From Candidatus Omnitrophota bacterium (lineage in GTDB: Bacteria > Omnitrophota > Gorgyraeia > Gorgyraeales > Gorgyraeaceae): a stretch of DNA of 64,000 nt. Shown piece after piece: positions 1,911 to 41,979 of the stretch. Positions within the stretch are counted from its first letter, which is position 1. Every line of letters starts with the position of its first letter. The position numbers were made by a program, and so were the translations under genes. Location of the stretch: the NCBI GenBank assembly GCA_018824145.1, contig JAHJHC010000032.1:5330-69329 (forward strand), given 5' to 3'. Below the pieces are notes generated by a model. It was not told the DNA's origin, did no database searches, and worked only from the letters and a program-made list of their open reading frames with translations.

Positions 1911-3323
1911 TTATTTCAATGCTCCTATAAGATAAAATTCCTGTTCCGACCTATTGTCCACCCTTCCATCTATTATCCTCTCACATCCTTCCAACGTCTC
2001 GTTCACTGTTACATAAGCACCTTTTTTGCCAGTATACGACTCTGCTACAGTAAACGGCTGCGTAAGAAAATATTGCAACTTTCTGGCACGTTCGTAAATT
2101 ATTCTGTCTGCAGGGGATAATTCATCGATTCCTATAACCAATACGATACGGCGCAACTCTTCATATTTCTGAAACATCTGAACGGCTGTATGAGCAATAT
2201 CTACATGGCGTTTTCCTACGATGTCGACATCAAGGTTGGAGCTTGATGATAATAAAGGATCGACAGCCGGATAAATACCTAGCTGAACCTTTTCACGGGA
2301 AAGGACCATCACGTTATCCATAAAGCTAAAAAGCACCACTACAGCAGGATCTGTCAGGTCATCAGCAGGAACATATACACATTCAATAGAAGTAATAGAC
2401 CCTCCTCCTTTTTGGGATGTCCTTATCCTTTCGTGAAATTCGCTTACCTCTGCCATCATTGTAGGCTGATACCCTGTCTCTGAAGGAACGCGGCCCATAA
2501 GTGTAGATGTCTCAGATCCGGCTTGAACATACCGAAAAATATTATCTACAAACAGCAAGACATCCTGGTTTTTCTTTTGAATGGCTTCTGCAAGGGTAAT
2601 CCCTGTTGCGGCTACTCCAAATCTAGCTCCGGGCGGTTCGTTCATCTGACCGAATACCATCTGCGTTTTTGAAAGGACACCTGATTCTGTAAGCTCATAG
2701 TAGAGTTCATTACCTTCACGAATACGTTCTCCTATTCCTGCGAAAACACAGGACCCTTCATGCATTTTTACGATTTTCTGAATAATTTCCAAAGTAAGTA
2801 CGCTCTTCCCCATACCAGCGCCGCCTAAGATCCCGGTTTTTGAACCTTTAACCAACGGAAAAAGAAGGTCGATAATCTTAAGCCCTGTTTCTATGACATC
2901 AAAGCTTTTTTTCTTTCTACCGCCCGTTCTGAGATAACTGCCCATATGAGTCTTGTGAATAGGCATTTTCTCAACACATTCAATTTTTCCTTTCTTGTCT
3001 ATAGGCTGTCCTAACACGTTAACCAGCCGGCCGTACATGCCTTCTCCAACAGGTATCTCTATACTCTTACCTGAATAATAAGCCTCTTGATTGCGGACTA
3101 TGTTAATCGTCGAGTTTATCGCAATACAGCGCGCAATATTCCCCGGCATGTGCTCGGAGACTTCCATAAAGACTTCTTCTCCATCAACTGTATGCGTCGT
3201 AACCAAACCAAATACATTGGGGACATCATCCTGGGACACAAACTTCACATCTACTACCGGGCCCTGGACTGAAATGACGCGTCCTACTATCTTTATATCT
3301 TTTTTATTTTTTTCCACGGACAT
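1911..3323 (-). CDS. atpD: F-type ATPase beta subunit.
   Basis: The protein has GGAGMGKSVL (P-loop), QMNEPPGARFGVAATGITLAE, YVPADDLTDPAVV, IYPAVDPL and a GIDELSPADR (DELSEED-like) segment, and aligns along its full length with F1 beta. Confidence 0.9.
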   Translation of the reverse strand: MSVEKNKKDIKIVGRVISVQGPVVDVKFVSQDDVPNVFGLVTTHTVDGEEVFMEVSEHMPGNIARCIAINSTINIVRNQEAYYSGKSIEIPVGEGMYGRLVNVLGQPIDKKGKIECVEKMPIHKTHMGSYLRTGGRKKKSFDVIETGLKIIDLLFPLVKGSKTGILGGAGMGKSVLTLEIIQKIVKMHEGSCVFAGIGERIREGNELYYELTESGVLSKTQMVFGQMNEPPGARFGVAATGITLAEAIQKKNQDVLLFVDNIFRYVQAGSETSTLMGRVPSETGYQPTMMAEVSEFHERIRTSQKGGGSITSIECVYVPADDLTDPAVVVLFSFMDNVMVLSREKVQLGIYPAVDPLLSSSSNLDVDIVGKRHVDIAHTAVQMFQKYEELRRIVLVIGIDELSPADRIIYERARKLQYFLTQPFTVAESYTGKKGAYVTVNETLEGCERIIDGRVDNRSEQEFYLIGALK

Positions 3324-4152
3324 ATCTCCCTGAAATCAGTTCGCGTAGAGCTCTATCAGCAAGCTCGTGACGGACACGAAAGTATTCTAACCTTACTTTT
3401 TTGTCTTCATCCTTCAGCTTCTCGCTCGATTCATCCAGGTGAATATAGCGGGCTGAAAATTCCGCTAGCCGGCTTACTCCAAAAATATAATGAAGCTTCT
3501 CTCCCATCCAAAGGTATACCAAATACTCGATCATATCTCCCGGCCTTGACTCCAGGATTATATCCTGATTTAAAGCGGGAATGGCCTTGCTTACATCAGG
3601 GGGGCGAAAAGGCAGAAAAGATACTGTTTCTATATGTTGCACTCCAAAGGAAACAGCTCGCGGATGTACCACTTTAACCGTATCAAACTCATTGGCCAAT
3701 GCCTTTTGGAAAATATAATCGCGCAGTTGCATTGCCTGTGTATGCCTTTCCTCATCCTGAATCCCGGGAAAGTTTACTGTCGAGTAGCCTTGTCCACTAA
3801 CATACATTTTTCCGCGCGCCCCGATAATGACCATTGTCGTAGGCATTTTCTGGGCCTCCTCAAGAGCTGCGTTTATAACTTTCATATTAAGTCCGCCCAA
3901 AAAACCGGCATCTGTGGTTATAGCAATAATAGCCTGTGCTCGTCCTTTGGCTTTCATGAAAACATGATTTACCGTATCCATATCAATATCTTTTAAAAAA
4001 CTTTCAATCGAAGGAAAAAATTCCTTAAAAACATTCAATCTCTTTTCCATCATATAATACTGTGCAATAGCAATCGATTTCAGCGTCTCAATCAAAAGCG
4101 ACAGCCCTTTATTGAATTCCATGTCTTTTTTTACGCTGATTAATGTCCTCAT
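3304..4152 (-). CDS. atpG: F-type ATPase gamma subunit.
   Basis: The 282-aa protein has AIITTDAGFLGGLNMKV (compare STDRGLCGGLN) and a C-terminal helix KVRLEYFRVRHELADRALRELISG typical of gamma. It lies between the alpha and beta genes. Confidence 0.75.
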   Translation of the reverse strand: MRTLISVKKDMEFNKGLSLLIETLKSIAIAQYYMMEKRLNVFKEFFPSIESFLKDIDMDTVNHVFMKAKGRAQAIIAITTDAGFLGGLNMKVINAALEEAQKMPTTMVIIGARGKMYVSGQGYSTVNFPGIQDEERHTQAMQLRDYIFQKALANEFDTVKVVHPRAVSFGVQHIETVSFLPFRPPDVSKAIPALNQDIILESRPGDMIEYLVYLWMGEKLHYIFGVSRLAEFSARYIHLDESSEKLKDEDKKVRLEYFRVRHELADRALRELISGRYVRGKK

Positions 4153-4153
4153 G

Positions 4154-5674
4154 CTATTTTATCTTTCCTGCAATATAATCTTTCAGGCAGCTTTCCAGCT
4201 TTTCAGCCATTTCCGTACTCATTTTTTTTGCAGTACGAAGATCACTAAAGAAAGAGGGGTGTACTTTTGTAATATACGGGCAGATATCCTCTCGGAATTG
4301 CAGGATCTGTTCTTTCGACAGGTTGTCAAGGAGCCCAAGATTCAAGGCATTCAAATAAACGATCTGGGCTTCCATTAAAACAGGCTGATTCCTATACTGA
4401 TTGATAAGGGCATTGATCGCATCTCCCCGTTTTATCTTGTCCTGAGCATCCTGTGAGATCCTGCCAGACTGCATCTGGGTCACTCTTAAAAGTTCTCTAT
4501 ACTGAATATAGTCCAGCCTTAATGTTTTACTGACCGAACGCATGGCATTCCACTGGGCCTTATTCCCGATACGAGAAACGGACAACCCAAAATCAATAGC
4601 AGGCATAAAGCCTTTCTTGAAAAGTTCGGTTGCAAAATAAAGCTGGCCGTCTGTCATCGAAACAATGTTAGTAGGAATATATCCGGTAAGGTCTCCCTGA
4701 AGGATCTCAACAATGGGGAAATATGTCATTGTCCCGTTCCCCCTTTCTTTGCTTAGATACCCCGCTCTTTCCATAAGCTGGGAATGTATATAAAAGATAT
4801 CCCCGGGATAAGCTTCACGGCCGGGAGCCCTTTCCAGGAGCAAGGATAATTGGCGATAGACCCAGGCATGCTTTGTAAGATCATCAAAGACTACAAATAC
4901 ATCCTTCCCATTGTACATGAAATATTCTCCCAGCATACTCGCAGTATAAGGGGCCAGATACTGCTCGCCGGTAGATAAGGACGCTACACCCGAAACAATA
5001 ATAGTGTATTTTAAGGCATCATGTTCTTTGAGTAAATCCACCACCTTGACAAGGCTGGAATACGGTTTTCCTATTATACAATAAATACAGATAACATCCC
5101 TTCCTTTTTGATTGAGGATGGCATCCATAGCAACCGTTGTTTTTCCTGTCTGACGGTCACCGATTAAGAGCTGGCGCTGGCCTTTGGCAGTAGGAATAAT
5201 CGCATCAAGGATCAATGTGCCTGTTTCAAATGTTTTATCAACAGGCTGCCTTTCCATAACCCCGGGAGCAACACGAAAGACAGGAAAGCTGTCATTAGCC
5301 TCAATCGGCCCGAGCCCGTCCTGAGGCATGCAAAGCCCGTTTACAATCCTGCCCACGAATGCATCACCTACAGGAAGGTCCAATGACTTGCCCTTGTTAT
5401 AGATCTCATCGCCTGCGCTAATATCCGCAACATCACCTAAAACAAGGACCTGGATATCTTCTTCAGTAAAGCCTATTACAAGGCCCAGTGTGCCATTTGC
5501 AAATTCAACGATCTGCCCGTTCATGCAAAAAGGCAACCCTTTGGCTATCACGACAAATTGCCGTACGGATTCAACGTACCCGACCTCTCTTACATCAAAG
5601 CCCGTTTGTGGTTTATCCATATCTTCTTTCTCACTACTCATCAGCCTCTTTTCCTGAGGCGTCAAGCATGGCAA
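4154..5674 (-). CDS. atpA: F-type ATPase alpha subunit. The true start is probably the internal Met near 5641.
   Basis: The protein has IGDRQTGKTTVAMDAILNQ, LLLERAPGREAYPGDIFYIHSQLMERA, PTNIVSMTDGQLYF and LSVSRIG, all hallmark F1 alpha motifs. Confidence 0.9.
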   Translation of the reverse strand: MPCLTPQEKRLMSSEKEDMDKPQTGFDVREVGYVESVRQFVVIAKGLPFCMNGQIVEFANGTLGLVIGFTEEDIQVLVLGDVADISAGDEIYNKGKSLDLPVGDAFVGRIVNGLCMPQDGLGPIEANDSFPVFRVAPGVMERQPVDKTFETGTLILDAIIPTAKGQRQLLIGDRQTGKTTVAMDAILNQKGRDVICIYCIIGKPYSSLVKVVDLLKEHDALKYTIIVSGVASLSTGEQYLAPYTASMLGEYFMYNGKDVFVVFDDLTKHAWVYRQLSLLLERAPGREAYPGDIFYIHSQLMERAGYLSKERGNGTMTYFPIVEILQGDLTGYIPTNIVSMTDGQLYFATELFKKGFMPAIDFGLSVSRIGNKAQWNAMRSVSKTLRLDYIQYRELLRVTQMQSGRISQDAQDKIKRGDAINALINQYRNQPVLMEAQIVYLNALNLGLLDNLSKEQILQFREDICPYITKVHPSFFSDLRTAKKMSTEMAEKLESCLKDYIAGKIK

Positions 5675-6377
5675 CTTGTCCCAATATCTTATGTCTCAAG
5701 CTGCCGTCCAAAACAAGACTCCCTATTTCAACAATAATCCCTGCTACGATTTTAGGATCCAGTTCTTCTTTTAAGTCCATATTACTTCCCAAAAGCTTAT
5801 TCACTTTCTTTAATAATTCGGCACGATCACTGTCACTCAACGGGAAAGCAGTCAAAACTTTTATTTCCTTGATCCCTTTTATTATCTTTAATTGACCTAT
5901 CTTCTTAAAGCCGTTTTCAATAAGGTCACGGACCCATCGCGAATGAACATCCTGCTTGAATTCCTCAGGCAAGGTATTCTGAATTGACTCACATGCCTTA
6001 TTGATTGCCTCTTTTGCTATTCTTTCATCTAATTCAGCGATAATGACCTTGCGAGACCTGTCTGCCTGTTCAACAATCTCCTCACTTCGGACTCGCGCCT
6101 CTTTTAATATCTTATCCCTTTCTGCCGCTGCCTGATTAGCAATATCTAAACGTTGTTTTTCTGCCTCATTACGGGCCACGGACAACAATTCTTCAGATTT
6201 ACGTTTTGCCTCCTCAAGCCGTCTATTTATATCCTTTTCTTTTTTACTATAATCCTGGTTTAATTCTTCAAGATGTTTTGTAGCCAAAACGACATTTCTA
6301 TTCAATATATGTTTAAACATATATATAAGCCCTATAAATATAACTATCTGGAACAATACCAAGGAAATTATAAGCAT
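5634..6377 (-). CDS. F-type ATPase b subunit fused to a delta (OSCP) C-terminal domain.
   Basis: It has an N-terminal TM helix and a long charged coiled coil typical of subunit b. The C-terminus VLTAFPLSDSDRAELLKKVNKLLGSNMDLKEELDPKIVAGIIVEIGSLVLDGSLRHKIL resembles the delta C-terminal domain. At 247 aa it appears to lack a full delta N-terminal helical bundle. Confidence 0.6.
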   Translation of the reverse strand: MLIISLVLFQIVIFIGLIYMFKHILNRNVVLATKHLEELNQDYSKKEKDINRRLEEAKRKSEELLSVARNEAEKQRLDIANQAAAERDKILKEARVRSEEIVEQADRSRKVIIAELDERIAKEAINKACESIQNTLPEEFKQDVHSRWVRDLIENGFKKIGQLKIIKGIKEIKVLTAFPLSDSDRAELLKKVNKLLGSNMDLKEELDPKIVAGIIVEIGSLVLDGSLRHKILGQVAMLDASGKEADE

Positions 6378-6398
6378 CTTATCCTCTCTTTCGGGATA

Positions 6399-6614
6399 TT
6401 ACCTTGCGAACAACTGAAACACTACCAATATTGCAATAATTGCCAAGGCCTGAGCAAAGACCAGGGCTATCACTAATGCCGTAAAAATCTTAGGGGCAGC
6501 AGACGGATTCCTGCCCAATGCGCCTATACTGGCAAAACACCCTGCAGCAAACACCGCACACGGCCCCAAGATACATACTGAAAAAATTAAAATAAGTGAA
6601 ATATTACGATCCAT
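6399..6614 (-). CDS. atpE: F-type ATPase c subunit homolog lacking the ion-binding carboxylate.
   Basis: The 71-aa protein is a two-helix hairpin with an RNP loop (compare RQP). Helix 2 reads LVFAQALAIIAIL and aligns to LVEALPIIGVV of canonical c subunits. Q55 is encoded by the CAG codon at 6452..6450 on the minus strand, which I verified from the DNA. Confidence 0.65.
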   Translation of the reverse strand: MDRNISLILIFSVCILGPCAVFAAGCFASIGALGRNPSAAPKIFTALVIALVFAQALAIIAILVVFQLFAR

Positions 6615-6861
6615 TGATTATAGGAGATGATGATTCCTCGACGACAATAGTTACTTTATTCTGATCGACTTTAACGATCCCTCTCTGTATATTAAATCTC
6701 TCTTCATCTATAAACAACGCACCTGAAATAAGCCGGCTTAAAATACGTTTGTGAAACGGTATTATCTCAAATACACCTTGCTCTCCAGGAACAATCACAC
6801 TCTGTGCCTTCCCTTTAAAAATAATCTTTCTGGGTGTTAATACATCCACATCTAATTGCAT
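6604..6861 (-). CDS. atpC: F-type ATPase epsilon subunit, N-terminal beta-sandwich domain only.
   Basis: The 85-aa protein contains LDVDVLTPRKIIFKGKAQSVIVPGEQGVFEIIPFHKRILSRL, which resembles the epsilon N-domain. It overlaps the c gene by 11 nt. Confidence 0.55.
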   Translation of the reverse strand: MQLDVDVLTPRKIIFKGKAQSVIVPGEQGVFEIIPFHKRILSRLISGALFIDEERFNIQRGIVKVDQNKVTIVVEESSSPIINGS

Positions 6862-6902
6862 TTTAACCTAGTTTTTTAAATAATACAAGACCCTATGATT
6901 TT

Positions 6903-7715
6903 TTATTCAGCCTTACTTTTATTTTCCTTGGAATCCGCCTCCGGAAATGCGGATTTCTTGGCCCCTGAAAGGCTATCTTTAGTAAGACGCGCCTGATGCT
7001 GCCACGTAAAAAACAACACCCCTGCCAAAAGGCCGCTAAATATAATAATAACGAATATTACTATCCAGGTCATGGTCTTTGAAGGAGAATCCGCCTTTAT
7101 GTTGGCATCTGCCAACATACTAGGAGAAGGCGGCCCTCCGGCAGTAACAAGGATCTTCTCCATCTTAGCAATATCTTCATCTATATTTTCTATTGCAAGT
7201 AAATTCTGACGGTAAATACCAATGTGACTCTGACGGCTAACTGACTCATCAGCCTGTGTAGTTCCAATTTCACTTAAACGTTGAAAAATACTATTGGCTA
7301 TCTCCTCAGCCTTCAGATAATACTCTGTGTCTTCAAGATTAGCTAGAATCGAGTCTGTGCGTTCCCTGAAATCAAGCAATTTAGCATCAGCTACAAGCCA
7401 GACATCTCTTACCTCGATTTCAAAGACTTTAACTTCTGAAGGTGACAGTTCCACCGTCTCTTTATACAAATAGAAGATAGATCTATCAGTATCATATTCT
7501 AAGTCCAAGCCAGCTGAATTTATAATATCATCGGGTTTTATCTCTATTGGTAAATACTTTTTAACCGGGGTAGTTTGTGTTTTTGTCTTTGATGGGTTAA
7601 CTACAACAATCTTAAAGGTCACGCTTTCAGCGGCCTTTAGTTCTCCTGAGTTTATAAAACTCCACACTGAAAACACTAATAAACCCCACACTACATTTTT
7701 TAAAATTACCCGCAT
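6903..7715 (-). CDS. Hypothetical single-pass membrane or periplasmic protein, the first gene of the ATPase-like operon.
   Basis: The 270-aa protein has an N-terminal signal or anchor helix (VVWGLLVFSVWSFINSG) and a C-terminal TM (MTWIVIFVIIIFSGLLAGVLFF). An AGGAGG SD lies about 8 nt upstream of the ATG. It shows no similarity to subunit a. Confidence 0.5.
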   Translation of the reverse strand: MRVILKNVVWGLLVFSVWSFINSGELKAAESVTFKIVVVNPSKTKTQTTPVKKYLPIEIKPDDIINSAGLDLEYDTDRSIFYLYKETVELSPSEVKVFEIEVRDVWLVADAKLLDFRERTDSILANLEDTEYYLKAEEIANSIFQRLSEIGTTQADESVSRQSHIGIYRQNLLAIENIDEDIAKMEKILVTAGGPPSPSMLADANIKADSPSKTMTWIVIFVIIIFSGLLAGVLFFTWQHQARLTKDSLSGAKKSAFPEADSKENKSKAE

Positions 7716-7801: not shown

Positions 7802-7834
7802 AAAAAAAACTTGCCTTTTTTAAAAAGGCAAGTT
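7802..7834 (-). terminator. Intrinsic (rho-independent) terminator downstream of the giant gene.
   Basis: The stem CTTGCC/GGCAAG (7810-7815 and 7827-7832) has an AT loop. On the minus strand it is followed by a U8 tract, the complement of A8 at 7802-7809. Confidence 0.6.
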
Positions 7835-7857
7835 TCTCTTTTGGAAATTTGGAAATT

Positions 7858-7930
7858 GGAAATTCGGGACACATCCCAATTTTCACGCGTAGCTACAAAG
7901 CTTGAAAATTGGGATGTGTCCCGAATTTCC
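7858..7930 (-). repeat. A 27-bp perfect inverted repeat with a 19-nt loop, forming a large stem-loop in the giant-gene 3' UTR and flanked by short tandem GGAAATT repeats.
   Basis: Positions 7858-7884 (ggaaattcgggacacatcccaattttc) are the exact reverse complement of 7904-7930. The loop contains the palindrome GTAGCTAC. GGAAATT occurs three times on the left flank and CGAATTTCC twice on the right. Confidence 0.8.
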
Positions 7931-7983
7931 CGAATTTCCCTTACGCGCATCCAGCATCAAACATTGAGATTCCATAAAATACC

Positions 7984-10900
7984 TTACTGCATTAGTACAA
8001 TAGGATCTTCAATCCCGCCAATTTTACTTTCAAAAGTCTGCAACACTACATCAACTGTTCCATTTATCGCGTCTGTCTTATTGCGGATCTCTTTTACAGT
8101 AGGTGATTCTGTCAAGGCCTCTTCTAAGATTGTGCCCATATCATACCCTTCCTCACCAGCTAAGGCCTTTATCCTATCCGAGACCTCATTAATTGCATTA
8201 GTGATTACAGCAGTAGGACCTTCTTTCGACATAATCTCAGGCAAAGCATCTACGGAACTCTTAAGATTCTTTAGTGTGAGCGCAATATTTATACTATCAC
8301 CGGAAATCAATACTGCCTCTAATGCCTTTATAGCCTCCAATGCCTTCTTGGCTGCACGTGATGCCTCTGGAGCTGCGGCTGCAAGTCCTGCTACTGTAGT
8401 AATACTCATGGATTCAACCATCCCTGAACCTACCAAGACTGTACCAGTCTGCTGTTCAGTGACCATGTAGGTATAGGCCTTACCAGCAGGGAAGTTTCCG
8501 TCAGCTTCAACCTTTGCTATATACATTCCCGGTGTATCCTGGGTCATAAGTAGCCCTTCTTCAATAGCATCTCCGTCCCAGGCATAAATATATACCTGCG
8601 GCAAGAGATTCGGCAACCCTATACATTGTAGAGTAATAGTATCTCCTGTTAATGCCGGATCAGGAAATACTGCAACACTCCACTCGTATTTTCCAACCAT
8701 ACCTGAACCAGTGACCAGTCCGCCTGTCTCTGATTCTTGGATAATGAAAGAGTATGCTTTACCTGCTTCAAAACTATCATCAGCTTCAAATTCATACACA
8801 TAAACTCCGTCGCTACTCTCTTTCATTATACTACTATAGACAAGGTTACTATTAACATCGTAAATATCAATTACAGGGGCTAACCCAGGTTGACCTTGGC
8901 AGTTTATGGTTACGGTTTCATTGGTCAATACTGGATTAGGGGACACACTAGCACCCCACGAATATTTCAATGCAGTTTCCATAAGGGTTTCACCTGCTTC
9001 TACAGCCATATCAGCACCTTCCTGCAAGTCCTCAATCGCTGATTGTGTCCTTGTCTCAAAACTGGTCAGTGTCATATCAACCATTGCAATCATCTCATCA
9101 GTCTTAGAATCAATAAGGGCTGACTGTTCATTCATCTTTGTCTCAATAGTCTCAGTCTGTGCTGAAACTATATCTACGACTTCATCTGTCTTTTGATCAA
9201 GAAGGATAATCTGTTGATCCATAGAAGCCTGTATCTCGCCGCTAATCACTGACATTGGTTTATCTAACACATAGTCGATCTTATCGTCCATGTTTTCAAG
9301 AGAGTCTTCCATAGATGCCATGGCAGTAGGTATAGTAACAGTGAATGATACAGGCGTTGTGAAGTTACCTCCAGTACCAAGCACAATGTAAGTCTTTACA
9401 GTATATACCTTACCTGCCTGCAAGGTATCATAGGCAGTTCCTCCGGAAGTATGAGATGTCGGAGTCCAGGTCTGTGGGAAAAAACCAGCAAAATCAATAG
9501 GAGTCTGGATTTCACCTGTCTTATAAGTTGCGCAATCTGCTATATTCTCAAACTGGAAGCGTTCCACTTCTTGCTCTAAATCAGGATCCCAACTCGTACC
9601 AAGCCAGATATCAACAGTCGACGGTATATCTTCATAGAAGTAGTGCTTCTCAGGATCCCCTGCTTGCGGTGTATCTTCTTCCTGTACTAAGATTGTCTTT
9701 CTCTTGATCTGTTCAAATCCATCGTAAATCTTTACATCAACAACCAATGCCCCAGGAACCAATGAACCATCTCTTTCCAGCCATGAAGTTATATCCAATC
9801 TGTCAGTCTCTACATCATAAGAAAACTCTGAGTACGCCCTCCAGATATGTACAACCAATGTTTCCATAGTACGGAAAATCTTCCTGTCTCCCCATACTTT
9901 ACCTTCTTCGTCCACTCCGGTAAAATATGTTACTTCAATTGGACCATAATCTTTGTGGGTGAAGGTTGCTGTCCAATTGTCAGCTGTAACATCATGGTTT
10001 TTGGGCGAACTAACACCTGTTGCGTCCCAGCCAGGCCATCCACTTGTTGAGACTTCACTTACTGTCAACCCATTTATATGCTGGTTCGTAATTAAATCTC
10101 GTATATCCCATGTAATCGTATAGTAATCTATCTTCATTGTAGTGGATACACCAGCTGGAAAACCTGGATCAACATATGGACCCTCTATAAATACGTCAGG
10201 GTCATTGTGGTCATATATACGGATCTTTACAGTATCTGAACGATCATTAGCAATCTTCCAGTCAAATGTACCAGTATTATCCCAGTCTAATGCCTGCTGC
10301 CCTAGATCATTTTTAATAAGAATCTGATTGTCAGGCACGCCGTCTGCCGGGTCTATATCCGCGAAATTATCTTTTGAATAGTATATATCTACTTTAGGTA
10401 TAGTACCAAATGTTGTCCAGGTAACTTCACGTACTTCATTTGTAACCCAGCGACACTCATAGTCTAAAACTTCTGCCGGATCCCCGCCTTCTTTCAATGC
10501 TATGGCAGGAGAAGTAAGAGTGAAATCACCCTGAATCTTAAATTCGCCGGAATCGTCATTTACAATGCTCTCCAACAGAGTCCTTGCATCAGCTACTTTT
10601 ATCACGCAGGTAGGTGAGATATAATCCTCTACTATCCATGTGAATGAATGCGTTGCACCCGGATTCTGAGGATCATATACACCGTTGGTTACGATACCTG
10701 TATTAGCAGTGCCAGGATCATTATCTTCATCTATAGGAACAAACGGGCCTCCTACACCGTTCTGCGATATGGTTATCTTCACCTGCGGCATTGTTCCGCC
10801 CCATTCCCATGTAATGTCGTGAGAACTGGCAACTGCCCATTTTTCATCTGCAACAGGTGCATGAGTTATTATATAACCTATTATCTCAAAACTTTGGCTT

Positions 10901-13900
10901 TCGCCTATAATATCTGTCTGATCACCTACTGGAGAGGTTCCGTCTCTTGCATCAGCTACTCTGATAATAACATTTGCACTCGCCTCATCAGGAACCGTCC
11001 ATGTGAAAGTATGCTCTGCGCCTGGTCCGCCTGCGCCTGCGCCGTTAGTTACTAAGCCGGTATTTGCAGTACCAGGGTCATTGTCCTCGTCTACAGGATT
11101 AAAAGGCCCTGTAAGTCCATTGGTAGAATAAGTAATCTCAACTTCAGGAATAGTCCCTACCCAATTCCATTTTATATCCTTATCCTGTCCTATTTCCCAA
11201 GAAGGACCTCCTACAGGTGCATTAATCGTAATCTCACCCATGATCCTGAATAAGCCTGATGTATCAACTGCATCTGAATCCAATGAACTTTCTACGCGCA
11301 GTTTTACAGTATCCCTGGCAATATCATCAGGTACTGTCCAGTCAAATGAACCTCCACTTGCTCCATTAGCCACTATACCAGTATCTGCAGTCTGAGGATC
11401 ATTATCTTCATCTATAGGATCGAATGGTCCTGTATCACCGTTTAAAGAATATGTTATCTTTACATCCGTTACTGTACCGGTATTAGTCCAGGTAATTTGG
11501 TACGAATCACCAACAACCAGGTCCTGGCCCGTAATATTAGGATCTATTGTAAACTTGGCGCTGATCTTTGCATACGGTGCTGTAGTAAAGCTGTTTCGGT
11601 TCGGAAAACCAGTTTGCGCATTAACAGTATGAGGTGCAACACCATAACAATCTGAATCGTCATTGGATTCTACCTTGATCTTTAACTGGCTAGAAATGAT
11701 ATCAGGAACCTTTGGTACCCATAACCATTCTTCGTCTGTCGCAGGAGTTGAACTTCCTGATATAGCTGTCCATGAACTACCGCCGGTGAGAGAATAATAC
11801 ATAGTCACGTTGCCAAGAGTAGGCACTGTTGTATCTGTAATTGTCCACGTGATATATCTATTGGTATCATTAACAAACCACTGTTCATCACTCACTGGAG
11901 AAGTAACAATTATATCAGGCATAATTTTGAATGGACTAGCTGAATCCTTATAAGCATCTGTATCAGTCGGATCATCATAATTCGGATCTTCTACCCGCAT
12001 TATGAGCCCCATGTTATCTGTAATCAACCTATAATCAAGCGTAGTAGGTATGGTCCAGTCATAAATGCCTGCAGTACCAGATGACGGTTGAACACCAATC
12101 ACATACTTTATTGTAGGATTGGCTTGTAGATACACAGTGAGTTTTACTGCTTCCTGGGTCCTCGCTGTATCAGAATATGTTATACCTGTCTTAGTCCAGG
12201 AGATAGTCTCAGTATGTCCCAGAATCCATTTCTGTCCGCCATTAGGTGAAATACTAGTAAAGTTGACCCGGATAGTGAACGCATCAGAGATATCATAGAC
12301 ATCTGGATCATCATGTTTAGAGATACGGATTCTCATACTTTCAAATCCGACTGCCTCCGGCGGTATATTCCAGCCAAAATTACCTACGCTCCCGACAAAT
12401 TGCTCGGACGAGGTTATAACCTTTATATCCGTCGGGTCCTGCGGATCGCCAGGATCAGTAAAGTCCGGATTATTATATGCATATTCTATTTTGACTTTAT
12501 CAAAACTACTCGGGCCGTATCTCGTCCATTTGATAGTCCCCTGAGTACCAGCCTCCCAGACATATCCAGTCTCCGGTTCCTCAACCACAACCCTTGCCAT
12601 AATCTTAAACGGATTATCTGTTACATCTTTGACATCCGGAAATGCTGTATTATGGTCTTTTACCCGTATAAGCACATTCTCTGCAGTTAAAGTTATTGGT
12701 ATATCCCACGGATATTCTTTAGCACCGCTATTACTATAATTGGTTATTATATCTACCCAATCATTAGGATTGGATGGCGGTGTTGAACCAAGGTAATAAG
12801 CTATGTCTACATTAGTAATATTACCCTGCGAAGTCCATTTTACATAATGAGTTAAATCACATCCCCATTTTTCCATGTCAAGAAAATCAGGTGCTGTACC
12901 GCCATTGGGTTCAGTTACAGTAATTGTACCTTGTATAGTGAAGTCAACTGAAGTATCAAAACAATATGCAGAGTAAGTAGCATTCGCATCAGAGACACGG
13001 ATCCTATAGGTATGTGTAAGGTCTATACTATTAGGGATCGGCCAATCATAACTATTAGTAGCATCATTGGTAATCCCTGATATAACTGTCCCTGGCCATG
13101 TGTCATACGGAGCATCTTTCTTATATTTAATATCTACTGAAGTTGCTATATCTTCAGAGGTCCAAGTTACAGCATGCGTATTACCGGCTATCCACGGCAC
13201 TGTTCCGTCAGGAGTTAGTACAGTGATGTTATCTATTATCCAGAATGCTGTATCTGATTCATCCTTTACTAATTCTTGAGGATCGCTGGGATCCTTAAGC
13301 CGGATAAAGCAGTTAGTTGATCTACCTTTATCAGTAGGCACTGACCAGGAGTATTCTGTAGCACCTTCCACATAAGTCATATATTCATAATTTTCTTCTA
13401 CGTCCCCTGTTGTAGATAAGTAAATATCCACTCTGGAAATCGGACCGATCATAGTCCATATAATCTTTGAATCCTGATCAAATTGACCTGCCTTCAATTT
13501 GCTGCTAGAGTCATTAGGCTGCGTTACTGTTAACTGTCCGTGTACAGTAAACGGAGCTGATTCAGTAGTAGCACTGGAATCCTGTGCGTCACTTATTTTA
13601 ATCTGTGCCTCGTAACTTATTGCATTAGGAACTGTCCAAGGATATTGATTATTATTACTTATGGTTGAGCCGTCATTTACAAAATCAAAGTTATCCTGAT
13701 CATCTAAGCGGTATCGTATATACACATTGAGAATGGTACCTTTTGTGGTCCATTCTATAGTCTTTGCACTATTAGCCAGCCACCTGTCAGTTGAAATTGG
13801 ATGTAAGAATGTGAATCCGCCCCGCACAATGAACTCGGGTGAAAAACCTGTTACAAAAGATTTTTGATTCGTATCTTTTATCCTTATTATTGTATGCGTA

Positions 13901-16900
13901 CTGGCTACAGTAGTTACTGAATTCCAAGTATATGTGTTTGCATCCTGAGATACTGCCAAAGAAGGTTCAATTTCTGTCCAGGGCCCGGATAGACCATTAC
14001 TAGAAAATTCTATCTTAACATTAGTTATAGCGCCGGAAACCGTAAAGTTAATATCTTCCTGCTCCTGGCAAATCCACGGGTCTCCTGCTTGAGGCCGCGT
14101 AACTACTATATTAGCAATCTTAAAAACAGGCGAAGTATTTGTCACTTCATTATACAATTCATCTGTCACACGCACTACTACATTACTACTAATTGTAGGA
14201 GGTACGGTCCAGGGATAGGATTGGTCACTGGCAGTAATATCCGTATCAATGGTTATCCAATCTACGCCAGTACCTACACCGTCATAATCATAGTCTAATG
14301 TTACCTCAGGTATCGGCCCTGTTGTTGTCCAGGTAATATTCTTCTGCGCGCCGGAATCCCAAACCTGATCCAGCTGCGGGCTGGTAATCAAGAGCTTACC
14401 TCTTACGTAGAAAAAGTCTGAAACAGCCGCTATAGTAGGCTTTGTAGCGTCTGAATTAACTATCCTGACTTTCACTGAATCGCTTATGACGCTGGGAACG
14501 CTCCAGGTAGTTGAATTCTCTGTTAAATCCTCTCCGTCAGTAATATACTGATATGCACCGCCATTTATCGTAGGTTCTGACCACAATACGTCAACAAGTG
14601 GGATATTGCCTGTCTTGGTCCAGGAAATTGTCTTCTGATCCAATACATACCAGGTTTCTCCGCCTACTGGTGCACCAAGGACTATCTTACCTGTTATAGT
14701 GAAATTACCTGACTCATCTTTTACGTCATTAGGCTTGGTAGTATCTGCTATCCTGACATTGATCTCGTCAGACATCTGATCCGGGATCTTCCAGGTGAAA
14801 CTACCGTCTGAGGCAGAAATATTACTTGCCTGGCCTACAGGATCAACCTGCGGGTCTTCCCCTGCTGCCCAACCTAGTACCCAGCCAAAATCTCCGCCAG
14901 CTACTGAATATTCAATATTTACATTATTTACAACGCCTGTTACTGTCCACTCTATATCGTGATTATCATTTACTACCCATGCATCACTGGTAGTAGGACT
15001 GTCAAGGGTTATCTTTGCCCTTACCTCAAACGAGTTAGATGTATGTTTTGCATCTGCGTTATCCGGATCACTGATCTTTACCAAACACGTAGTTGATGCA
15101 ACATCACTCGGTACAGTCCATGAATAAGCACCTGAATTGGAAACAAACCCTGTACCGGGATTTCCAGCGCTTACATAGTCAATATTACGCCAAGCACCGC
15201 CATTATTGCTTGAGAATTCAAGTTTCGCAATAAGTATATCAGCTCCGTTTGGCGTCCAGGTTATGGTGCGACCTGAAGCGGAAATAACATAAGCTGGTAT
15301 AGCGTCTAACACAAATCCGCCCCTGATCTTAAAGGGAACTGATTCGTCTTCTACTTTATCAACAGCTGTCTCAGTATCCTCATCTGTTATCTTGATCTTG
15401 ACACTTTCAGATACGTGATCAGGTATTGATGACCAAGTATAGGATTGACCTGATGCTGCTACAGGCATATTTGAGGCATCTACCAGATCATATCCCTGGC
15501 CATAGTCATAGTAGATGTTTACGAGCCCTATACTTCCTGTATAGGACCAGGTGATGTTCTTATCTGTTGTCCCGACTTCCCAATTAGAATTTGAATCAGG
15601 TTTTACTACAGTTATGCTGCCTATAATGTCAAAACTCGGAGAATCGCCGTAAACACTGGAATTGACGTTATCAACTACTCTAACCACTACGTCATCACTT
15701 ATGGCATCAGGAATATTATCCCATGTGTAATCACTGGTAGCATCTACATTACCGGATACATCCAGGTCTTCAAACGAGCCGCCGTCTACACTGTAGTATA
15801 ACTTCACATAGCTAACCTGTTCAGAACCATTTAGGCTCCAGGAAATAGTGTGTCCATCTGAAAGGACCACTAAATTGCTGTCTTCTACAGGTTGTGAAAC
15901 TGTTATTACAGGCCTTATAGAGAATGGATATGTTGATACGCTATAGACATCAGTGGCTGCACCAGTATGATGCAGAGTATCTGATACTTTTATATAGCAG
16001 TTTTCTGAATTTTCGTCTTCTACTGTCCATTGATATGTATTGGAGCCATCTCCGTAAGCACCTCCGCCGTCATGATCCAGTATAATATCAATGTAATTCC
16101 CACCAGCTGAGGTCTTATATTGTATATCTACATTAGTCACGTCACCTATAGCTGTCCATGTAATATTTTTACTTTGACCTTTAAGCCAAATCGGTTTTGG
16201 AGTTTGCGAATCAGGGGCAGTGACATCCAATGAACCTACGAATTTAATATTATAGGGAACTACTGCCTTCACATCAGAATCATATTCGTGGCTGATTCTG
16301 ATCTTCACCTGATCATCTATGTCATTAGGCACGGTAAATGGATACACCCTTCTGACACCATGCGCAGAGTTAGCCACTGAAGTGAAATAATTAGTCTCCA
16401 GTTCATCCGCAAATGCATTTGTAGAGTATTCTATCTTAATCGGCCCGAATGTCCCTGTGGGTGTCCATTCAATATCATACGAAGTATTAACTGACCACAT
16501 AAGACCGCTCTCTATAGGAGACTCCCAAACAATGTCACCTTCTATCTCAAACGCCTCTGAATCATCAGTTACTTCTGTATTATCCACATCAGTTATCCTT
16601 ACTATAGCTGCCTTAGTATCATCAGTGATAGAATCAATCGCAGGGGCCCATAGATTATATGAACTAGACCCATACTCAAAATCCACTGTTGCTATATTTG
16701 TCCACGGTGCAGATCCGGTCTTGGAGAATTGAATTATCACATCACCCATATCTGCTGTCCCTAATGTAGTCCATTCTATAGTAAAGGCAGTTCCTACTGT
16801 CAATACATCCGTTGTCTCAGGTTCTGTAACAGTAATGCCGCTTTTCATCATGAAGCTATCAGACTCACCACATGCAGCTGCCAATGAAGCATCTGCTACC

Positions 16901-19900
16901 TTGATCATTGCCTGATCTTTAGTCAAAATATCTTCATCAGTAGGAATTGTCCAAGGATACGAAACAGGAGGCGTAGCAGTATATGAAGAGTTAATTACAT
17001 ATCCTCCGTACGGAGGATACGTTACTCCGTCGTCATTAGAATATACTATTTCGAATACATTAGGCGAACCTACTGTACCTATAAGACCTGTTACATTCCA
17101 CTCAATAAGATTACCTGAAGTCCCAATAACCCATTTGTCATTTGAGTCAGGTGAAGTAACAGTTATTACTGCGCGTATCTCAAATGTAGCTGATAGGTCT
17201 ACTGCTGCAGCATTGTCAGGATCACTAATTTTAAATTGGCAGGCAACAGACTTAACATCTGTAGGCACACTCCATGAACAGCTCTCTGAGTTTGTTACAA
17301 GACCCGTATGACCGGTGGGATTAGTCTTGTAGTCAATATCGTGCCATGTAGTACCGTCAAAAAATTCAAGTTTTGCAATAGGAATCTGTCCCTGCAGGTC
17401 ATAATTTTCCCATTTAATAGTATATGGATCACCTGCTGAAAGCGTTGTAGGAAGCAGAGCATCATTGATGTCAAAGTTTCCTGCAATATGGAATGTCGGG
17501 GACTCGTATTTCGTATATGTTTGACGATCCGTATCAACATCCTGGATCATAATCTGAGTAGTTAGAGTAATATGAGGTCCGACACCGTCTATACCAGCAT
17601 CCGGATCATCAAATGTCCACGTATCAGGAGAACCTGGTACAGTACTCTCAGTCTTAAGGTATTGATAGCCCTCACCGTCATCATAATCTATAAGTATATC
17701 CACACTGGTCAATTGATTACCGTATGCTGTCCAGTTAACTGTCTTATTAGTCTCTCCTACAAACCAGTTAGCATCCTGGGCAGGAGATAAACCATAGACA
17801 ATCCTTCCAAGTACGCGGAACGGAGATGAATCTCCGTATACCTTGTCCTCGAATCCAGTATCTTTATCTCTTACTCTTATCACTGCCTGGTTATAGCTTA
17901 ATTGCAGCGGGGCAGTTATAGCTGAACAGGTTTCTTCGGTATTAACATTATCCAAAAGCAATGTACCGGGAAGCCCGCCTGTTCCTGTAGATGAATAGTA
18001 GATCTGCACAGTAGATATAAGATTATCGTCGGATATAATATCTTCTGTCCAGGTCACTGTCTGATTCTCTAATCCAGCCCTCCATATAGGCGGATTAGAA
18101 CCTTCGTCACCAGCTGAAGGAGTAATGGTTACTCCGCTTATTGTCGGGTATGCACTGAATGTACCTGCTGATTCACCTTCTGCCTTTGGCGAAGTCTGTG
18201 CGTCTCTTATCCGAATCGTGCAATTGTTGCTTTTAACATCAGGTATTTGTGGTACGTTATAGGTCTCTATATTACCGTCTCCTACTGTGGCTGTGCCGCC
18301 CACAGCTAAATTATGCTCTGTTGTTCCATCATAGAGATAGATATATACTGTACTCATGGTATCTCCATAAGCACGCCATTTGACCTGTCTATTTGTATCT
18401 CCTACATTCCAGTCTATATCAAACGGCGCATAGTCTACTGTCGGAGTAAGTACAGTTATCTTACCTCGTATGTACATTGCGACTGAGGCAGCGCTTATTA
18501 CACTGCTATAATCTGTCTCATTCGCATCTCTCACCTTAAATTTAGTCGTATCCGTAAGATCAGCTGTTACCGGTATGGTCCACTGGTAAGTACCGCTTCC
18601 TACTGGGGTTGCAACTCCATTAAATGCACTTACATTAAACGGATCCAGATTTGTATCAACTGTATATTCATCTCCTGTAAAATTCCCTGAAGGAGATGCA
18701 ATGATCTTTACCTTATTTATCTCACCATGGTTTACATCCCATGATATGGCCTTTTGTTCTGTTATCCTCCAGGTAGTTGTCGTAGCAGGTGCGGTTAAGG
18801 TAAGAGCACCTCTTACCTTAAAGGCATCGCTTAGTACAAATGTCCCGTCAGTACCGGACTTTTCATAATTTGTATCTTCTATTAAAATCTTATAGTTTGG
18901 TATAAGTGGTGTTTCTGGAATTATCCATGCTGAGGCAAGTGACTGCTGTAAAGCCGCAGTTGTTGAAAATGTGCGGTCAGCAACTATTACATTCGAGAAG
19001 GTCACACCGTCTGTCGCATATTTTACACTCACTGCATTTATACGGCCATCCCTCTGCCAGGTTATCTGCGTACTATCTCTACCTACAAATCCACTGGCTA
19101 ATGTACCTGCAGTCGGAGTAATTATAGTCAGCTGTCCTTTTACTATGAAATCCAATGATTCATCTACGACATATGTGCCGAATGTTGAGGTATCTTCTAT
19201 CTTTATAAGTGAATCATCACCAGCATCCACCCTTGTTATATAATCCCCTGTTGCTGGATTTGTCGGGATAGTCCAATCGTATGAACCCTGGTTCGGAATA
19301 GTATCATCACCATCTGCATCACCGTCACCATCATCATCTTCAGCAGCCATTGAAGCAACTAGCTCTGTCCAGCCACCCCCTGTGTCTCTGGAATATGATA
19401 TCTTTACATTAGTTACAGGACCGTACACATCCCATGAAACAGTATTTGCTGTTGCGCCGTCTGCTGTCCAAATATCACCTTGACTAGGTGCAGTAACTTC
19501 TACATTACCGCATATCACAAATTCATTCGATTCTTTTGCTGTACTCGGTTGAAGCGGCGTACTTGCTGTAATCCTGAACTTTATATCTTCTGCAGCAAGA
19601 TTTAAAGGTATTGGATTATCATGTGCACCAGTCGTATCCCATGTATATGTGTTCTCATTAGCTACTCCTGAACCATGTTTATTGTTAGCAACTCCATCCT
19701 TTATCAATAACCATTCTCCACTGGCACCTGAATCTTTATTCCAGTATTCCAGTTTTACCGCGGAAACACTGTCACCGATTGTATTCCATTTGATTACAAA
19801 GGACGGCGTCAATGAATCTACATGGAAAGGCTCTCCTCCTGTTGGATATGCGAATGTAAAGGAAGAAGTTATCTTAAATGCATCTGATGTAGTAGTAGTT

Positions 19901-22900
19901 GCATCTTCATAAGCGCTGTCACCATCCTGGATCCTTACCTGTACATTGTTTCCAACTTCATTAGGAACGCCATCCGGATCCCATACGCCACCAGCTGATG
20001 CAGGATTATATCCTGCTACGCCGTCATCTACGTCAACATTCGCTTTTAAAAGCACTTCAGGATCGCCTGTGCCATAACCGTCATAATCAATATATATATC
20101 TACTGCTGTTAGATTTCCGTCATAGTGCCACTTTATAAGCTTATCAGTCGCACCTACAGGCCAGTTATGAGCACTATCAGGTTCATCTATATAAATCTTA
20201 CCTGCTACCCTGAAATTAGTAGCTGTCATTGCATTTATATAATCATCAAAATTAGAGTCCGCATCCCTGACTGCGATACGTCCCTGGGTGGTTTTATTAG
20301 TCGCTACTGTAATAGTATTACAGCTGCCCTGGGCTGTAGACCAGTTATCTACTATAGGTGTATCAGTTTCAAAGTTAAATCCGCCTGTTCCAGTAGCACT
20401 GTAATATATATCTACTGTTGTGAGCTTTGAACTTGTCTCTGTCCAGGTAACTGTCTGGTTCTCGGAATCAGATACCCATACTCCGGCTATATTAGGTGGA
20501 TTCGTCGGTGTTATTGCTACACTACTGATAGTCGGATACGCACTAAATGTACCTGACTCTCCTTCTGCATTAGGCGAAACAGCAGCATCTCTTATTCGAA
20601 TCGTACAATTATGGCTCTTTACATCCGGGACTGAAGGTACATTATAAGTCTCTATGTTGCCGTTTCCAACAGTAGATGTACCGCCTACAGCTAAATCATA
20701 CTCGGTAGTCCCATCATATAGATAAATATATACTGTACTCATGGTATCCCCATACGAACGGAACTGTACCTGTTTATCAGCCTCTCCTACCTTCCAGTCC
20801 ACACCAAACGGTGCATAATCTACGGAAGGTGTAAGTACAGTTATCTTACCTCGTATATACATTACTACTGATGCAGTACTTATTACGTCTGCAAAGTCTG
20901 TCTCATTGGCATCCCGAACTTTGAATTTAGTCGTATCAGTAAGGTCAGCTGTTACAGGTATTGTCCATGGGTAACTACCGCTTCCTACAGGAGTAGCTGC
21001 TGCACTAAATGCACTTACGTTAAATGGGTCAAGATTTGTATCAACCGTATATTCGTCCCCTGTGAAATTGCCGGAAGGAGATGCAATGATCTTTACCTTA
21101 TTTATCTGGCCATGGTCCACATCCCAGGATATGGTCTTCTGTTCAGTTATCCTCCAGGTAGTTGTAGTTGAAGGAGCGGTTATAGAAAGCGCACCTTTTA
21201 CTGTGAATGTATTACTTAATATATAGGTACCGTCTGTGCCTGATTTTTCATAATTTGTATCTTCTATTAAAATCTTATAATTAGGTGTAAGCGGGGTCTC
21301 GGGTACTATCCATGCTGAGGCAAGTGATTGCTGTGTAGCTGCAGTAGTGGCAAATGTCCGGTCAGCTGCTATCACATTGGAGAAAGTAACCCCGTCTGTT
21401 GCATACTTTACATTAACTGCATTGATACGGCCATCTCTTTGCCATGTAATCTGTGTCGAGTCTCTTCCTACAAACCCGCTAGCCAGTGTACCTGCTGTAG
21501 GCGCAATTATCGTCAGCTGTCCTTTTACTATAAAATCTAACGACTCATCATTGACGTACGTGCCATAAGTAGCAGATGCATCTTCGACCTTTATATATGA
21601 AACATCAGCTGCATCTACTCTCGTAATAAAGTCTCCTGAAGCAGGATTAACAGGGATGGTCCACTGGTATGCGCCTTTATTTGCCTGAGCATCTCCTGCC
21701 TCTGCTAACTGGGTCGGTACTATTACTGTATAACCAACGCCGCTATCTCTGGAATACGATATTTTAGCATTAGTTACAGGTCCGTATACATCCCATGAAA
21801 TCGTATTTGCTGTTGCACCATCTGCTACCCAAATCTCACCCTGTTCCGGCGCAGTCACATCCAAAGTCCCGCAAATAACGAATTCCTCTGACTCTAATTC
21901 CGTAGCAGGATGATTGGGTACGACTGATGTAATCCTGAATTTAATGTCAGTCGCAGCATAATTTACAGGAAGAGGTGTCGAAGAAGCAGGGCCCCAATCA
22001 TATGTATTGACCTGAACACCATCGCCATAGTTATTATCGACATTCCCGTCTATAAGCGTCCAGCCATTTACGTTGTGATAATATTCAAGTTTTACCTTGG
22101 ATACGTCAGACCCTGTTGTCTTCCATTGAATCTGTAACGGGCTCGGGCTGGTATCATCATCTATATGGAATGTCTCTCCGCCTAACGGATAAGCAAATTC
22201 AAATGAACCAATAATATTAAATGCAGGCGAAAGGTATTGTGTATAAGCCTTTCGGTCTGTATCAACATCTTCTATCCTTACTGTAACATTTTCCGCAGCA
22301 TAGTCACCCACGCCATCTACACCCGTATCTATATCATCATAAGTCCATGAATCAGGAGATTCAGGGACAGTATCTTCTGTCTTCTGATAGATATAGCTGC
22401 TCCCATAATCAATATAGATATCCACCTGAGTAAGCTGATCTCCATATGCTGTCCAGTTAATTAATTTATCCACAGCTCCTATTCCCCAGTTGGCACCTAG
22501 AGAAGGAGATGCACCATAAACTACCCGGCCTAAGACACTGAACACCTCTGTAGAATCTCCGTATACCTTATTTTCAAAACCTGTGTCATTATCCTGGACA
22601 CGGATCTTTGCACTCTGAAAACTCAAGTTTGTCGGAGCAGTAATAGTCGCACAGCTCTCATGCGTCAAGACATCTTCTTTGATTGTTACAGCATCAGCAA
22701 ATGTCCCTGCCTTACTGTATACAATATCAACTGTGTCTACTAGGGTATCATCTGATATATCATTTTCTGTCCACGTTACTGTCTGGTTGGCTAATTTAGC
22801 CCTCCATATAGTATGGTCTTTAGCTTCGTCGCCGACTGAAGGAACTATATCTACATTAGTTATTGTAGGATACACATAAAATGTCCCTGAAGTCTCTGAA

Positions 22901-40008: not shown

Positions 40009-40515
40009 TTAATCGCTTATTAAGACCTCGAGCTGATTCTCAGATTCTTCTTCGGAGTCAGGCTCAGGTCTTTTTATTCTTTTTGCAGCCCTCACAAAAC
40101 TAATACTTTTTGCGAGCCATTCTTCAGTAATCCTGTTTCCTCTGTTTGGCTTAGTTACCTCATGGTAAGTCACCTTCACAGCATCGCCGACTTTTATATC
40201 GTTTAAACCCTGTTTATGCACCACCTTTGTATCTTCATCAATAAGAAAAGAATAATCAGTATTTGTCTCGGCATCACCTACGGCAATAACCGTGGGATTA
40301 AATCTGGGTGTAAAATAAATAACCTCTCCTACCAACTCTTTTTCTTTAATCATCTCTTTCACAGGAGACTGTTCGCCTTCTCCTTGCTCTTCGTCGTCTT
40401 CCTGAGCAACTCCTGCCCCTATGCCTCCTAAGAGAAAAACCGCTATTAAAAATATGAGACATACAAAAATCTTTTTCATCCCGCTATCCTCCTTACTTTT
40501 AAAAATAATATTCAT
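40009..40515 (-). CDS. Small secreted protein of unknown function, located immediately upstream of and co-oriented with the giant gene.
   Basis: The 168-aa protein has a signal peptide (KKIFVCLIFLIAVFLLGGIGAGVA), an acidic linker, a beta-rich domain and an acidic C-terminus. There is a 15-nt gap to the giant-gene ATG. Confidence 0.6.
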   Translation of the reverse strand: MNIIFKSKEDSGMKKIFVCLIFLIAVFLLGGIGAGVAQEDDEEQGEGEQSPVKEMIKEKELVGEVIYFTPRFNPTVIAVGDAETNTDYSFLIDEDTKVVHKQGLNDIKVGDAVKVTYHEVTKPNRGNRITEEWLAKSISFVRAAKRIKRPEPDSEEESENQLEVLISD

Positions 40516-41780: not shown

Positions 41781-41797
41781 CTTACCTTTTCTCCTTC

Positions 41798-41873: not shown

Positions 41874-41880
41874 TTCTCCT

Positions 41881-41979
41881 TTAAGTTTCGGCAATCTGCC
41901 TATCCGCCTGAAGCGGACGCACGATTTTGCGTCTCCAGATTACTCTGGATTTGCCTTTTTCGACCTCAAATCTCTTCAA
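41881..41979 (-). CDS. Possible 32-aa basic small protein ((M)KRFEVEKGKSRVIWRRKIVRPLQADRQIAET). It starts at TTG and carries its own promoter and terminator.
   Basis: A perfect AGGAGG SD sits at 41989-41984 with a 4-nt spacer to the TTG at 41979. A TAA stop at 41883-41881 is followed immediately by the terminator. The ORF track omits it because it is under 60 aa and starts at a non-ATG codon. Confidence 0.25.
   Translation of the reverse strand: MKRFEVEKGKSRVIWRRKIVRPLQADRQIAET

Follow-up and report, generated by a model that had tools for sequence, protein, structure and literature searches.

The closest described systems are the REP, BIME and REPIN sequences of E. coli and Pseudomonas with their RAYT proteins (PMC3116915, PMC3337134, PMC3733652). 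Such repeats consist of short (20-40 nt) imperfect palindromic units that mostly stand in opposite orientation, so that a pair forms one larger hairpin. They are found between co-directional genes or downstream of them, where they are transcribed, and occasionally within genes, and different families may occupy the same spacer in related species. The typical unit carries an unpaired GTAG/CGTC tag, and the cognate RAYT gene, usually present in a single copy, is flanked by the repeats. Where the REPIN is the replicating unit, the whole doublet, spacer included, is expected to be conserved, and the literature presents REPIN-RAYT systems as inherited vertically and specific to their lineage. Bacterial MITEs, such as the Correia/NEMIS elements of Neisseria (PMC2649163, PMC10969869), have inverted-repeat ends of about 26 nt and flanks that may be TA, insert between genes and are co-transcribed, and the hairpins of Correia RNA are bound and cut by RNase III (PMC2649163). 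In addition, template switching at inverted repeats is known to homogenise the arms and to invert the spacers (PMC8604942, PMC8794818).

The stem-loop analysed here lies in a Candidatus Omnitrophota MAG and has the REP/REPIN traits of unit size, opposed arrangement, genomic placement and spacer sharing between families, with its 22-nt unit present at eight or more loci of the same MAGs. With the Correia/NEMIS MITEs it has in common the inverted-repeat ends, the possible TA flanks, intergenic insertion and, presumably, co-transcription. Unlike REP and REPIN sequences, the unit has no unpaired GTAG/CGTC tag, the doublet with its spacer is not conserved as a whole, the core is common to several phyla and the copy number is low so far. 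Because no flanked RAYT was found in the window or near the fetched copies and the tag is absent, we do not file the element as a member of a REPIN-RAYT system. It also differs from Correia/NEMIS elements in being much shorter (50-100 bp), in having no conserved interior and in the existence of singlet units, and no parent IS with matching ends was identified. In its behaviour the element resembles a REP/BIME doublet or a MITE of very small size, and we think it likely that the stem-loop is one copy of a short, non-coding, dispersed palindromic repeat family with a REP/BIME/REPIN-like layout and MITE-like inverted ends. Literature searches for Omnitroph* together with REP, REPIN or RAYT found nothing, and REP-like palindromic repeats are apparently documented here for the first time in Omnitrophota.

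The window, by which we mean the whole 64,000-nt stretch of DNA, contains no stronger inverted repeat than this element (Table 1). Its arms (7858-7885, GGAAATTCGGGACACATCCCAATTTTCA on the + strand, and 7903-7930) extend to 31 nt if one mismatch is allowed, and the loop reads CGCGTAGCTACAAAGCT on the + strand. A reading of the sequence only had described a perfect stem-loop with a 27-bp stem and a 19-nt loop, 54 nt past the stop codon of the giant gene and with an intrinsic terminator about 25 nt downstream. The perfect stem-loop, its placement after the stop codon and the downstream terminator all stand; the measured values are 28 bp, 17 nt, 53 nt and 22 nt, respectively. The palindrome GTAGCTAC that it had placed in the loop was found there, at 7889-7896. 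Folding, which it had also proposed, gave a free energy of -51.2 kcal/mol for the 73-nt RNA, against a shuffle mean of -15.1 (z = -10.4). A 98-nt version that includes the flanking micro-repeats gave -58.8 kcal/mol as RNA and -40.5 kcal/mol as DNA (z = -11.5), and the 27-mer inverted repeat was matched in 0 of 100 shuffles. The hairpin is far beyond chance.

Table 1. Coordinates of the element, its parts and its surroundings (window positions unless an L-numbered fetched locus is given)
Feature	Location	Strand	Remarks
Whole palindromic element	7858..7930	.	28-bp perfect arms and 17-nt spacer
Repeat unit 1 (AAATTCGGGACACATCCCAATT), conserved 22-nt core of the left arm	7860..7881	+	Matrix of 39 units; exact 21-mer/18-mer matches elsewhere
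Copy-specific spacer (loop), with GTAGCTAC	7886..7902	.	Both orientations in two near-identical strains
Repeat unit 2, right arm, 22-nt core inverted	7907..7928	-	
Two additional GGAAATT(T) copies	7843..7857	+	Partial tandem duplications of the outer end of the unit
Additional CGAATTTCC copy	7931..7939	+	Outer end of unit 2 partly duplicated
Intrinsic terminator of the giant-gene operon	7802..7840	-	CTTGCC...GGCAAG stem and T8; separate, outside the repeat
Giant ORF	7984..39993	-	10,669 aa; element in its 3' untranslated spacer
Atypical F-type ATP-synthase operon	1911..7715	-	
Y1/IS200-like domain protein	40512..41780	-	422 aa
c-di-GMP-I riboswitch	41886..41964	-	
Paralogous copies of the C-terminal domain of the Y1-domain protein	57804..58151, 60308..60649	-	
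In-frame copy inside folC	L033:618-691		folC ORF 216-1667; aa 135-159
GTAG-tagged REP GTAGCGCAGGCTTAAGCCTGCGCTAC copies	L043:3952-3977, 5581-5606, 6769-6790, 6802-6827		

The contigs L002 and L003, which come from independent short-read assemblies, break within the palindrome at the inner edge of an arm (window 7885-7887), as might be expected if an assembly error or chimeric reads had produced a false palindrome. The same arms and flanks, however, are present in the window, in an NCBI MAG and in Logan and JGI assemblies, and the family is seen at many loci in many assemblies. Since the hairpin sequence was recovered in four independent assemblies it is not an assembly artefact, and we regard the chance of an artefactual origin as negligible. 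These repeats do break short-read assemblies, with two contigs ending in the window copy, and they matter for MAG quality.

All the genes around the hairpin lie on the - strand, and on this strand the stop codon of the giant ORF is upstream of the hairpin. The sequence directly after the palindromic hairpin is AAUUUCCAAAUUUCCAAAAG; the U8 belongs to the separate downstream hairpin (stem 7807-7835, then T8). The next gene (6903..7715) is preceded by an AT-rich upstream region of its own. We rejected the palindromic hairpin as an intrinsic terminator because it has no U-tract and the element is dispersed at unrelated loci, and a DGR-type target hairpin was dropped on the same two grounds.

A position matrix of 39 units from about 24 loci has an invariant block of 22 nt, aAATTCGGGACACATCCCAATT, with free flanks. 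Each unit also forms a small imperfect palindrome of its own, AATT(C)GGGA-CACA-TCCCAATT, and the only ends seen in the matrix are aAATTC...CAATT. No GTAG/CGTC tag is present in the unit according to the matrix, and GTAG is found only in the private spacer of the window copy. Inverted pairs occur in the window and at L021, L022, L024, L025, L027, L033, L035 (three pairs), L006, L014 and L019, and in every pair the AAATTCGGG end faces outward. The paired arms, of 24-29 nt, are identical between copies, with a symmetric extension of a few bases that is particular to each copy (TTCA, TTCTC, TCG etc.); the gap between the paired 21-mers varies from 6 to 33 nt, and the spacer sequences are unrelated among copies. 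One singlet (L024:920-943) is a perfect 24-nt palindrome, AAATTCGGGACACATCCCGAATTT.

The arm 18-mer TTCGGGACACATCCCAAT was scanned against one genome per species and the 21-mer AATTCGGGACACATCCCAATT against JGI metagenomes, where exact matches to the latter were found at 16 loci. By our own calculation, about 17 matches to the 18-mer are expected by chance in 596 Gb, both strands included. Matches in high-GC coding regions and in two Asgard genomes (L010-L013, L016, L020) were taken as chance because they have neither the flanking consensus nor a partner arm. There were 0 matches to the 18-mer in viral contigs, and plasmids and phages gave no meaningful matches to the element, at most at chance level; as far as these comparisons go, nothing points to an origin from a phage or plasmid, or to the end of a known IS. 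Rfam had no match to the element at gathering thresholds, in the window or in repeat-bearing loci. Generic long-hairpin miRNA models of Rfam, which matched at permissive E-values only, were rejected as structure-only mimicry, and in the literature the GGGACACATCCC core turned up only as primer coincidences.

The proteins of the window carry two NCBI accessions each (MBU1061697/MBU1062058 and MBU1852709/MBU1852712), indicating that they come from two sibling MAGs. The JGI sample 3300014656, which also contains the window locus (L003 = L031), has six more inverted pairs (L021, L022, L024, L025, L027 and L033) and two singlets. The proteins adjacent to the repeats at these six loci and at L034 fall within the two accession blocks of the window (MBU1061697-1062489 and MBU1852480-1853736), and GCA_018817745.1, a MAG that also contains L001, itself yielded the rodA and ftcD loci. 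Moreover, the tetranucleotide correlation with the window is 0.88-0.95 for the repeat contigs, compared with 0.77-0.89 for other Omnitrophota. The genome search for copies suggested by the sequence-only reading thus yielded at least seven further loci of the unit, binned into the window's own MAGs; the number of exact 21-mer copies is modest, at about 8 loci in MAGs that are fragmented. Copies of the family lie between the leuB stop and the asd start, between secG and an ABC-transporter gene, between fhs and ftcD, between rodA and a radical-SAM gene, and after tag. This dispersal, which that reading had itself named as the sign of a repeat element, bears out its fallback, a REP/MITE-like palindromic element, and argues against a role in stabilising one particular mRNA.

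A further copy lies in frame inside folC. The product of this gene, of 483 aa, is deposited as MBU1061765.1, and the copy adds about 25 translated residues; FolC sequences from the PDB align on both sides of the insert and are about 36 residues shorter there. The Rickettsia palindromic elements (RPEs) reportedly also insert in frame into protein-coding genes and are translated. RPEs are 100-150 bp long and restricted to Rickettsia. The folC copy resembles them as an in-frame palindromic repeat in a protein-coding gene; its sequence is unrelated, and RPEs are longer and confined to their own genus. Because they can be translated inside genes and can add long RNA duplexes to operon transcripts, the repeats described here matter for annotation.

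A filled and an empty site could be compared between leuB and asd. The C-terminus of LeuB (...DLVVKNL*) is identical in L024 and in the relative L038. The leuB-asd spacer of L024 measures 83 nt and holds the element; in L038 it has 14 nt, and in L037 leuB and asd overlap. The filled and empty sites show insertion. The comparison is compatible with duplication of a TA, with a boundary made ambiguous by the AT-rich palindromic ends. Possible TA...TA flanks, blurred by the same AT-rich ends, were seen at L024, L022, L027, L024b, L023, L029, L006 and L014, and the window and L035 copies have no TA flanks.

The order giant gene, 270-aa gene, ATP-synthase operon is kept in three related Omnitrophota (L040/41, L042 and L043), whose giant orthologues have 8,471 aa, 5,484 aa and more than 3,411 aa. 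The 3' spacers of the giant genes measure 76-123 nt in these relatives, as opposed to 268 nt in the window, and GGGACACATCC is absent from all three. The spacer of L042 has an ordinary terminator and that of L040 an unrelated imperfect hairpin. In L043 (GCA_043797125.1), the spacer contains another palindrome, GTAGCGCAGGCTTAAGCCTGCGCTAC, of which a further three copies lie within 8.8 kb, inside the ATP-synthase operon (Table 1), and which by its sequence is a classical GTAG-tagged REP as defined in PMC3733652. That L043 has a different REP, together with the absence of the element from the relatives, indicates that the giant-gene spacer is a landing place for palindromic repeats. The window element is thus an arrival specific to its lineage and not a conserved part of the giant gene.

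These comparisons bear on the main proposal of the sequence-only reading, namely a dedicated element in the 3' UTR, selected because it keeps 3' exonucleases away from an mRNA of about 33 kb or because a stabilising protein binds to it. Hairpins formed by E. coli REP sequences can stabilise upstream mRNA, and both the position between stop codon and terminator and the very high stability of the RNA hairpin (-51 kcal/mol) would suit such a function. However, three related giant genes have no such element in their orthologous 3' spacers, an identical element sits at leuB-asd, secG-ABC transporter, fhs-ftcD and rodA-radical SAM and inside folC, and the terminator hairpin already caps the transcript. 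Moreover, RNase III would find an ideal substrate in a perfect duplex of 28 bp, so that the net effect could be destabilising. We therefore hold a dedicated stability element to be improbable; the account of a special stabiliser for a 33-kb mRNA, tempting but wrong, is thereby removed.

Outside the window's own MAGs, the 18-mer was found in Omnitrophota nzgw313 (three sites at L006, and L014), with one copy between bolA and grxD, in Ca. Auribacter fodinae (L009 and L017), on three contigs (3 loci) of a Latescibacterota MAG and on a RIFCSP 'Deltaproteobacteria' contig; a Brocadiaceae/Planctomycetota contig has the unit as an inverted pair. The core is identical in nzgw313, Planctomycetota, Latescibacterota, Deltaproteobacteria RIFCSP and a 60%-GC contig with three pairs (L035), and is present across genomes of 37-60% GC. 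A family with an identical 22-nt core over several phyla and a wide GC range, with free spacers and no GTAG/CGTC tag, is unusual. That the core is strongly conserved from phylum to phylum while the spacers are free counts against the dispersed-repeat reading and also fits a protein-binding DNA site. In that case a conserved dimeric DNA-binding protein would use the near-palindromic 22-nt unit as an operator or architectural site, and the pairs would be double sites. Such a site would account for a core whose 22 nt stay the same in all 39 units whereas flanks and spacers vary freely, for its occurrence in several phyla, and for the many copies found 10-30 nt upstream of a start codon. On the other hand, no coherent regulon emerges from the neighbouring genes, one copy falls within an ORF, the element is present or absent at orthologous sites, and the window copy is downstream of its gene, ahead of a terminator. 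Closeness to start codons is also expected of any insertion into short spacers, and we give the binding-site explanation little chance.

The micro-repeats that the sequence-only reading had seen flanking the hairpin were all located, with GGAAATT at 7843-7849, 7851-7857 and 7858-7864 and CGAATTTCC at 7922-7930 and 7931-7939. Partial tandem duplication of the outer 8-14 nt of the unit is found at several loci, including L007/L032 (GGGGGAATTCGGGGAATTCGGGAC), L025 (AAAATTCGTAAAATTCGGGAC), L005/L026 (AAAAATTCGGTAAAAATTCGGGAC), L014 (GTCCCGAATTAAATGTCCCGAATT) and L006. The three GGAAATT and two CGAATTTCC copies of the window are the local form of this family trait and no independent signal.

L001 and the window are identical over 5,226 nt except for the 17-nt spacer, which is exactly reverse-complemented, and for two SNPs, at window positions 6379 and 6090. 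L002 and L003 carry both L001 SNPs, and the one informative spacer base of L002 agrees with L001; L004 is identical to the window. Thus, the orientation of the spacer co-segregates with the haplotype across independent assemblies. The rodA and ftcD copies are similar in the size of arms and loop, and their orientation agrees in four and five assemblies, respectively, suggesting that assemblers resolve these hairpins reproducibly and that inversion is rare. A spacer found in both orientations in otherwise near-identical sequences could also point to a programmed inverton, with the arms as recombinase sites and a spacer that flips to alter expression. At 17 nt, however, the spacer is too short for synapsis by known invertases and has no promoter, and there is no recombinase gene in the neighbourhood. 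The orientation also tracks two SNPs, as expected of a fixed strain difference, and two other copies are invariant in 4-5 assemblies each; an inverton is very improbable. The strain-level inversion fits template switching during replication, of which it would be a clean natural case at a perfect palindrome. Quasipalindrome or template-switch mutation (PMC8604942, PMC8794818, PMC7202029) could account for the perfect arms, the copy-specific symmetric extension and the inverted spacer; it is a process that acts on the element, and it leaves the spread to new loci and genomes unexplained.

A mobiliser was sought in the window and near the copies. The only Y1-domain gene of the window (Table 1) matches Pfam PF01797 (2.4e-10) and scores 68.9 bits against NF047646, 'REP-associated tyrosine transposase' of NCBIfam, for which the cut-off is 80. 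Its product has a transmembrane segment and a C-terminal domain, of which two paralogous copies are encoded elsewhere in the window. The family is conserved across Omnitrophota at 45-58% identity with invariant HUH histidines; the position of the catalytic Tyr is Y/H variable among orthologues and is His in the window. The gene is not flanked by units, and tblastn with the protein against all the fetched loci detected no RAYT-like ORF near the repeat copies. We rejected this protein as the obvious mobiliser, since it has His at the Tyr position, is membrane-anchored and has no flanking units; from its sequence it looks like a domesticated Y1 domain and no transposase. It also seemed conceivable that hairpins of this kind are bound by the degenerate RAYT-like protein, whose gene heads the giant-gene operon; this extension is weakened because orthologous operons retain the protein and not the element.

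Several observations count against a dispersed repeat. No mobilising enzyme was found near any fetched copy or in the window, and the typical REP tag is absent (PMC3733652). The spacers differ, unlike in simple copy-and-paste of a whole REPIN or MITE, target-site duplication is ambiguous and copy number is modest. Even so, the best reading of the sequence data is a REP/BIME- or MITE-like non-autonomous repeat with a putative mobiliser in trans. We suggest that the element is, or formerly was, moved by an enzyme encoded elsewhere, for which an HUH/Y1 transposase that recognises single-strand hairpins or a DDE transposase that targets TA would be candidates. The window copy landed between the stop codon of the giant gene and a pre-existing terminator. 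After insertion, template switching within the palindrome during replication may keep the arms perfect, extend them symmetrically, yield the GGAAATT and CGAATTTCC partial duplications and occasionally invert the spacer. Unless transcription terminates earlier, the element would be co-transcribed in the 3' UTR to give an RNA duplex of 28-35 bp, which may passively block a 3'-to-5' exonuclease, in the way that REPs of E. coli stall such enzymes, or serve as a substrate for RNase III; the cutting of Correia RNA makes the latter a plausible fate for the 28-bp duplex of the window. Any such RNA effect may be a by-product of insertion and not the reason for the sequence. A bolder version, which we consider unlikely, is that the 22-nt unit aAATTCGGGACACATCCCAATT serves as the recognition element for a mobilisation system that has yet to be described and that spreads horizontally, belongs neither to the GTAG/RAYT type nor to any known IS, and is common to subsurface Omnitrophota, Planctomycetota, Latescibacterota and others, with inverted doublets made de novo at each insertion site. 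De novo formation of the doublets would explain the unrelated spacers.

Other features were noted around the giant gene. The first and last 1,000 residues of the giant protein (7987-10986 and 36994-39993, - strand) had no Pfam match at E <= 0.001. A c-di-GMP-I riboswitch heads its operon (window 40009-41964, - strand) and is followed by the RAYT-like membrane protein, at least one small ORF and the giant gene. This order, including the riboswitch, is conserved in two other Omnitrophota species (L044:2787-7269 and L045:2779-7299), and the riboswitch suggests that the giant protein is under c-di-GMP control. Directly downstream of the giant gene, the atypical ATP-synthase operon encodes the epsilon, c, delta/OSCP-like, alpha, gamma and beta subunits; ahead of it comes a conserved protein of 270 aa, for which neither Pfam nor NCBIfam gave a match.

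In one Latescibacterota genome, the unit forms the exact 5' boundary of a non-coding repeat of 380-800 nt, with no Rfam match, at three loci (L005/L026, L008/L028/L030 and L015/L036, with the unit at the left boundary), and an RBS and a tiny ORF (MTMKIRMTLIFPSNDSSR) come immediately after the unit. At L035 (60% GC), the three inverted pairs of the AT-rich unit (125-181, 1396-1452 and 1565-1620) lie within 2 kb, around mnmE/folC-like genes, and the ORFs of the contig look frameshifted; two of these pairs are followed by a second common repeat, GGGTTGACGTAGAACCCGCCGGACCGGGTCCGGTTCAA.
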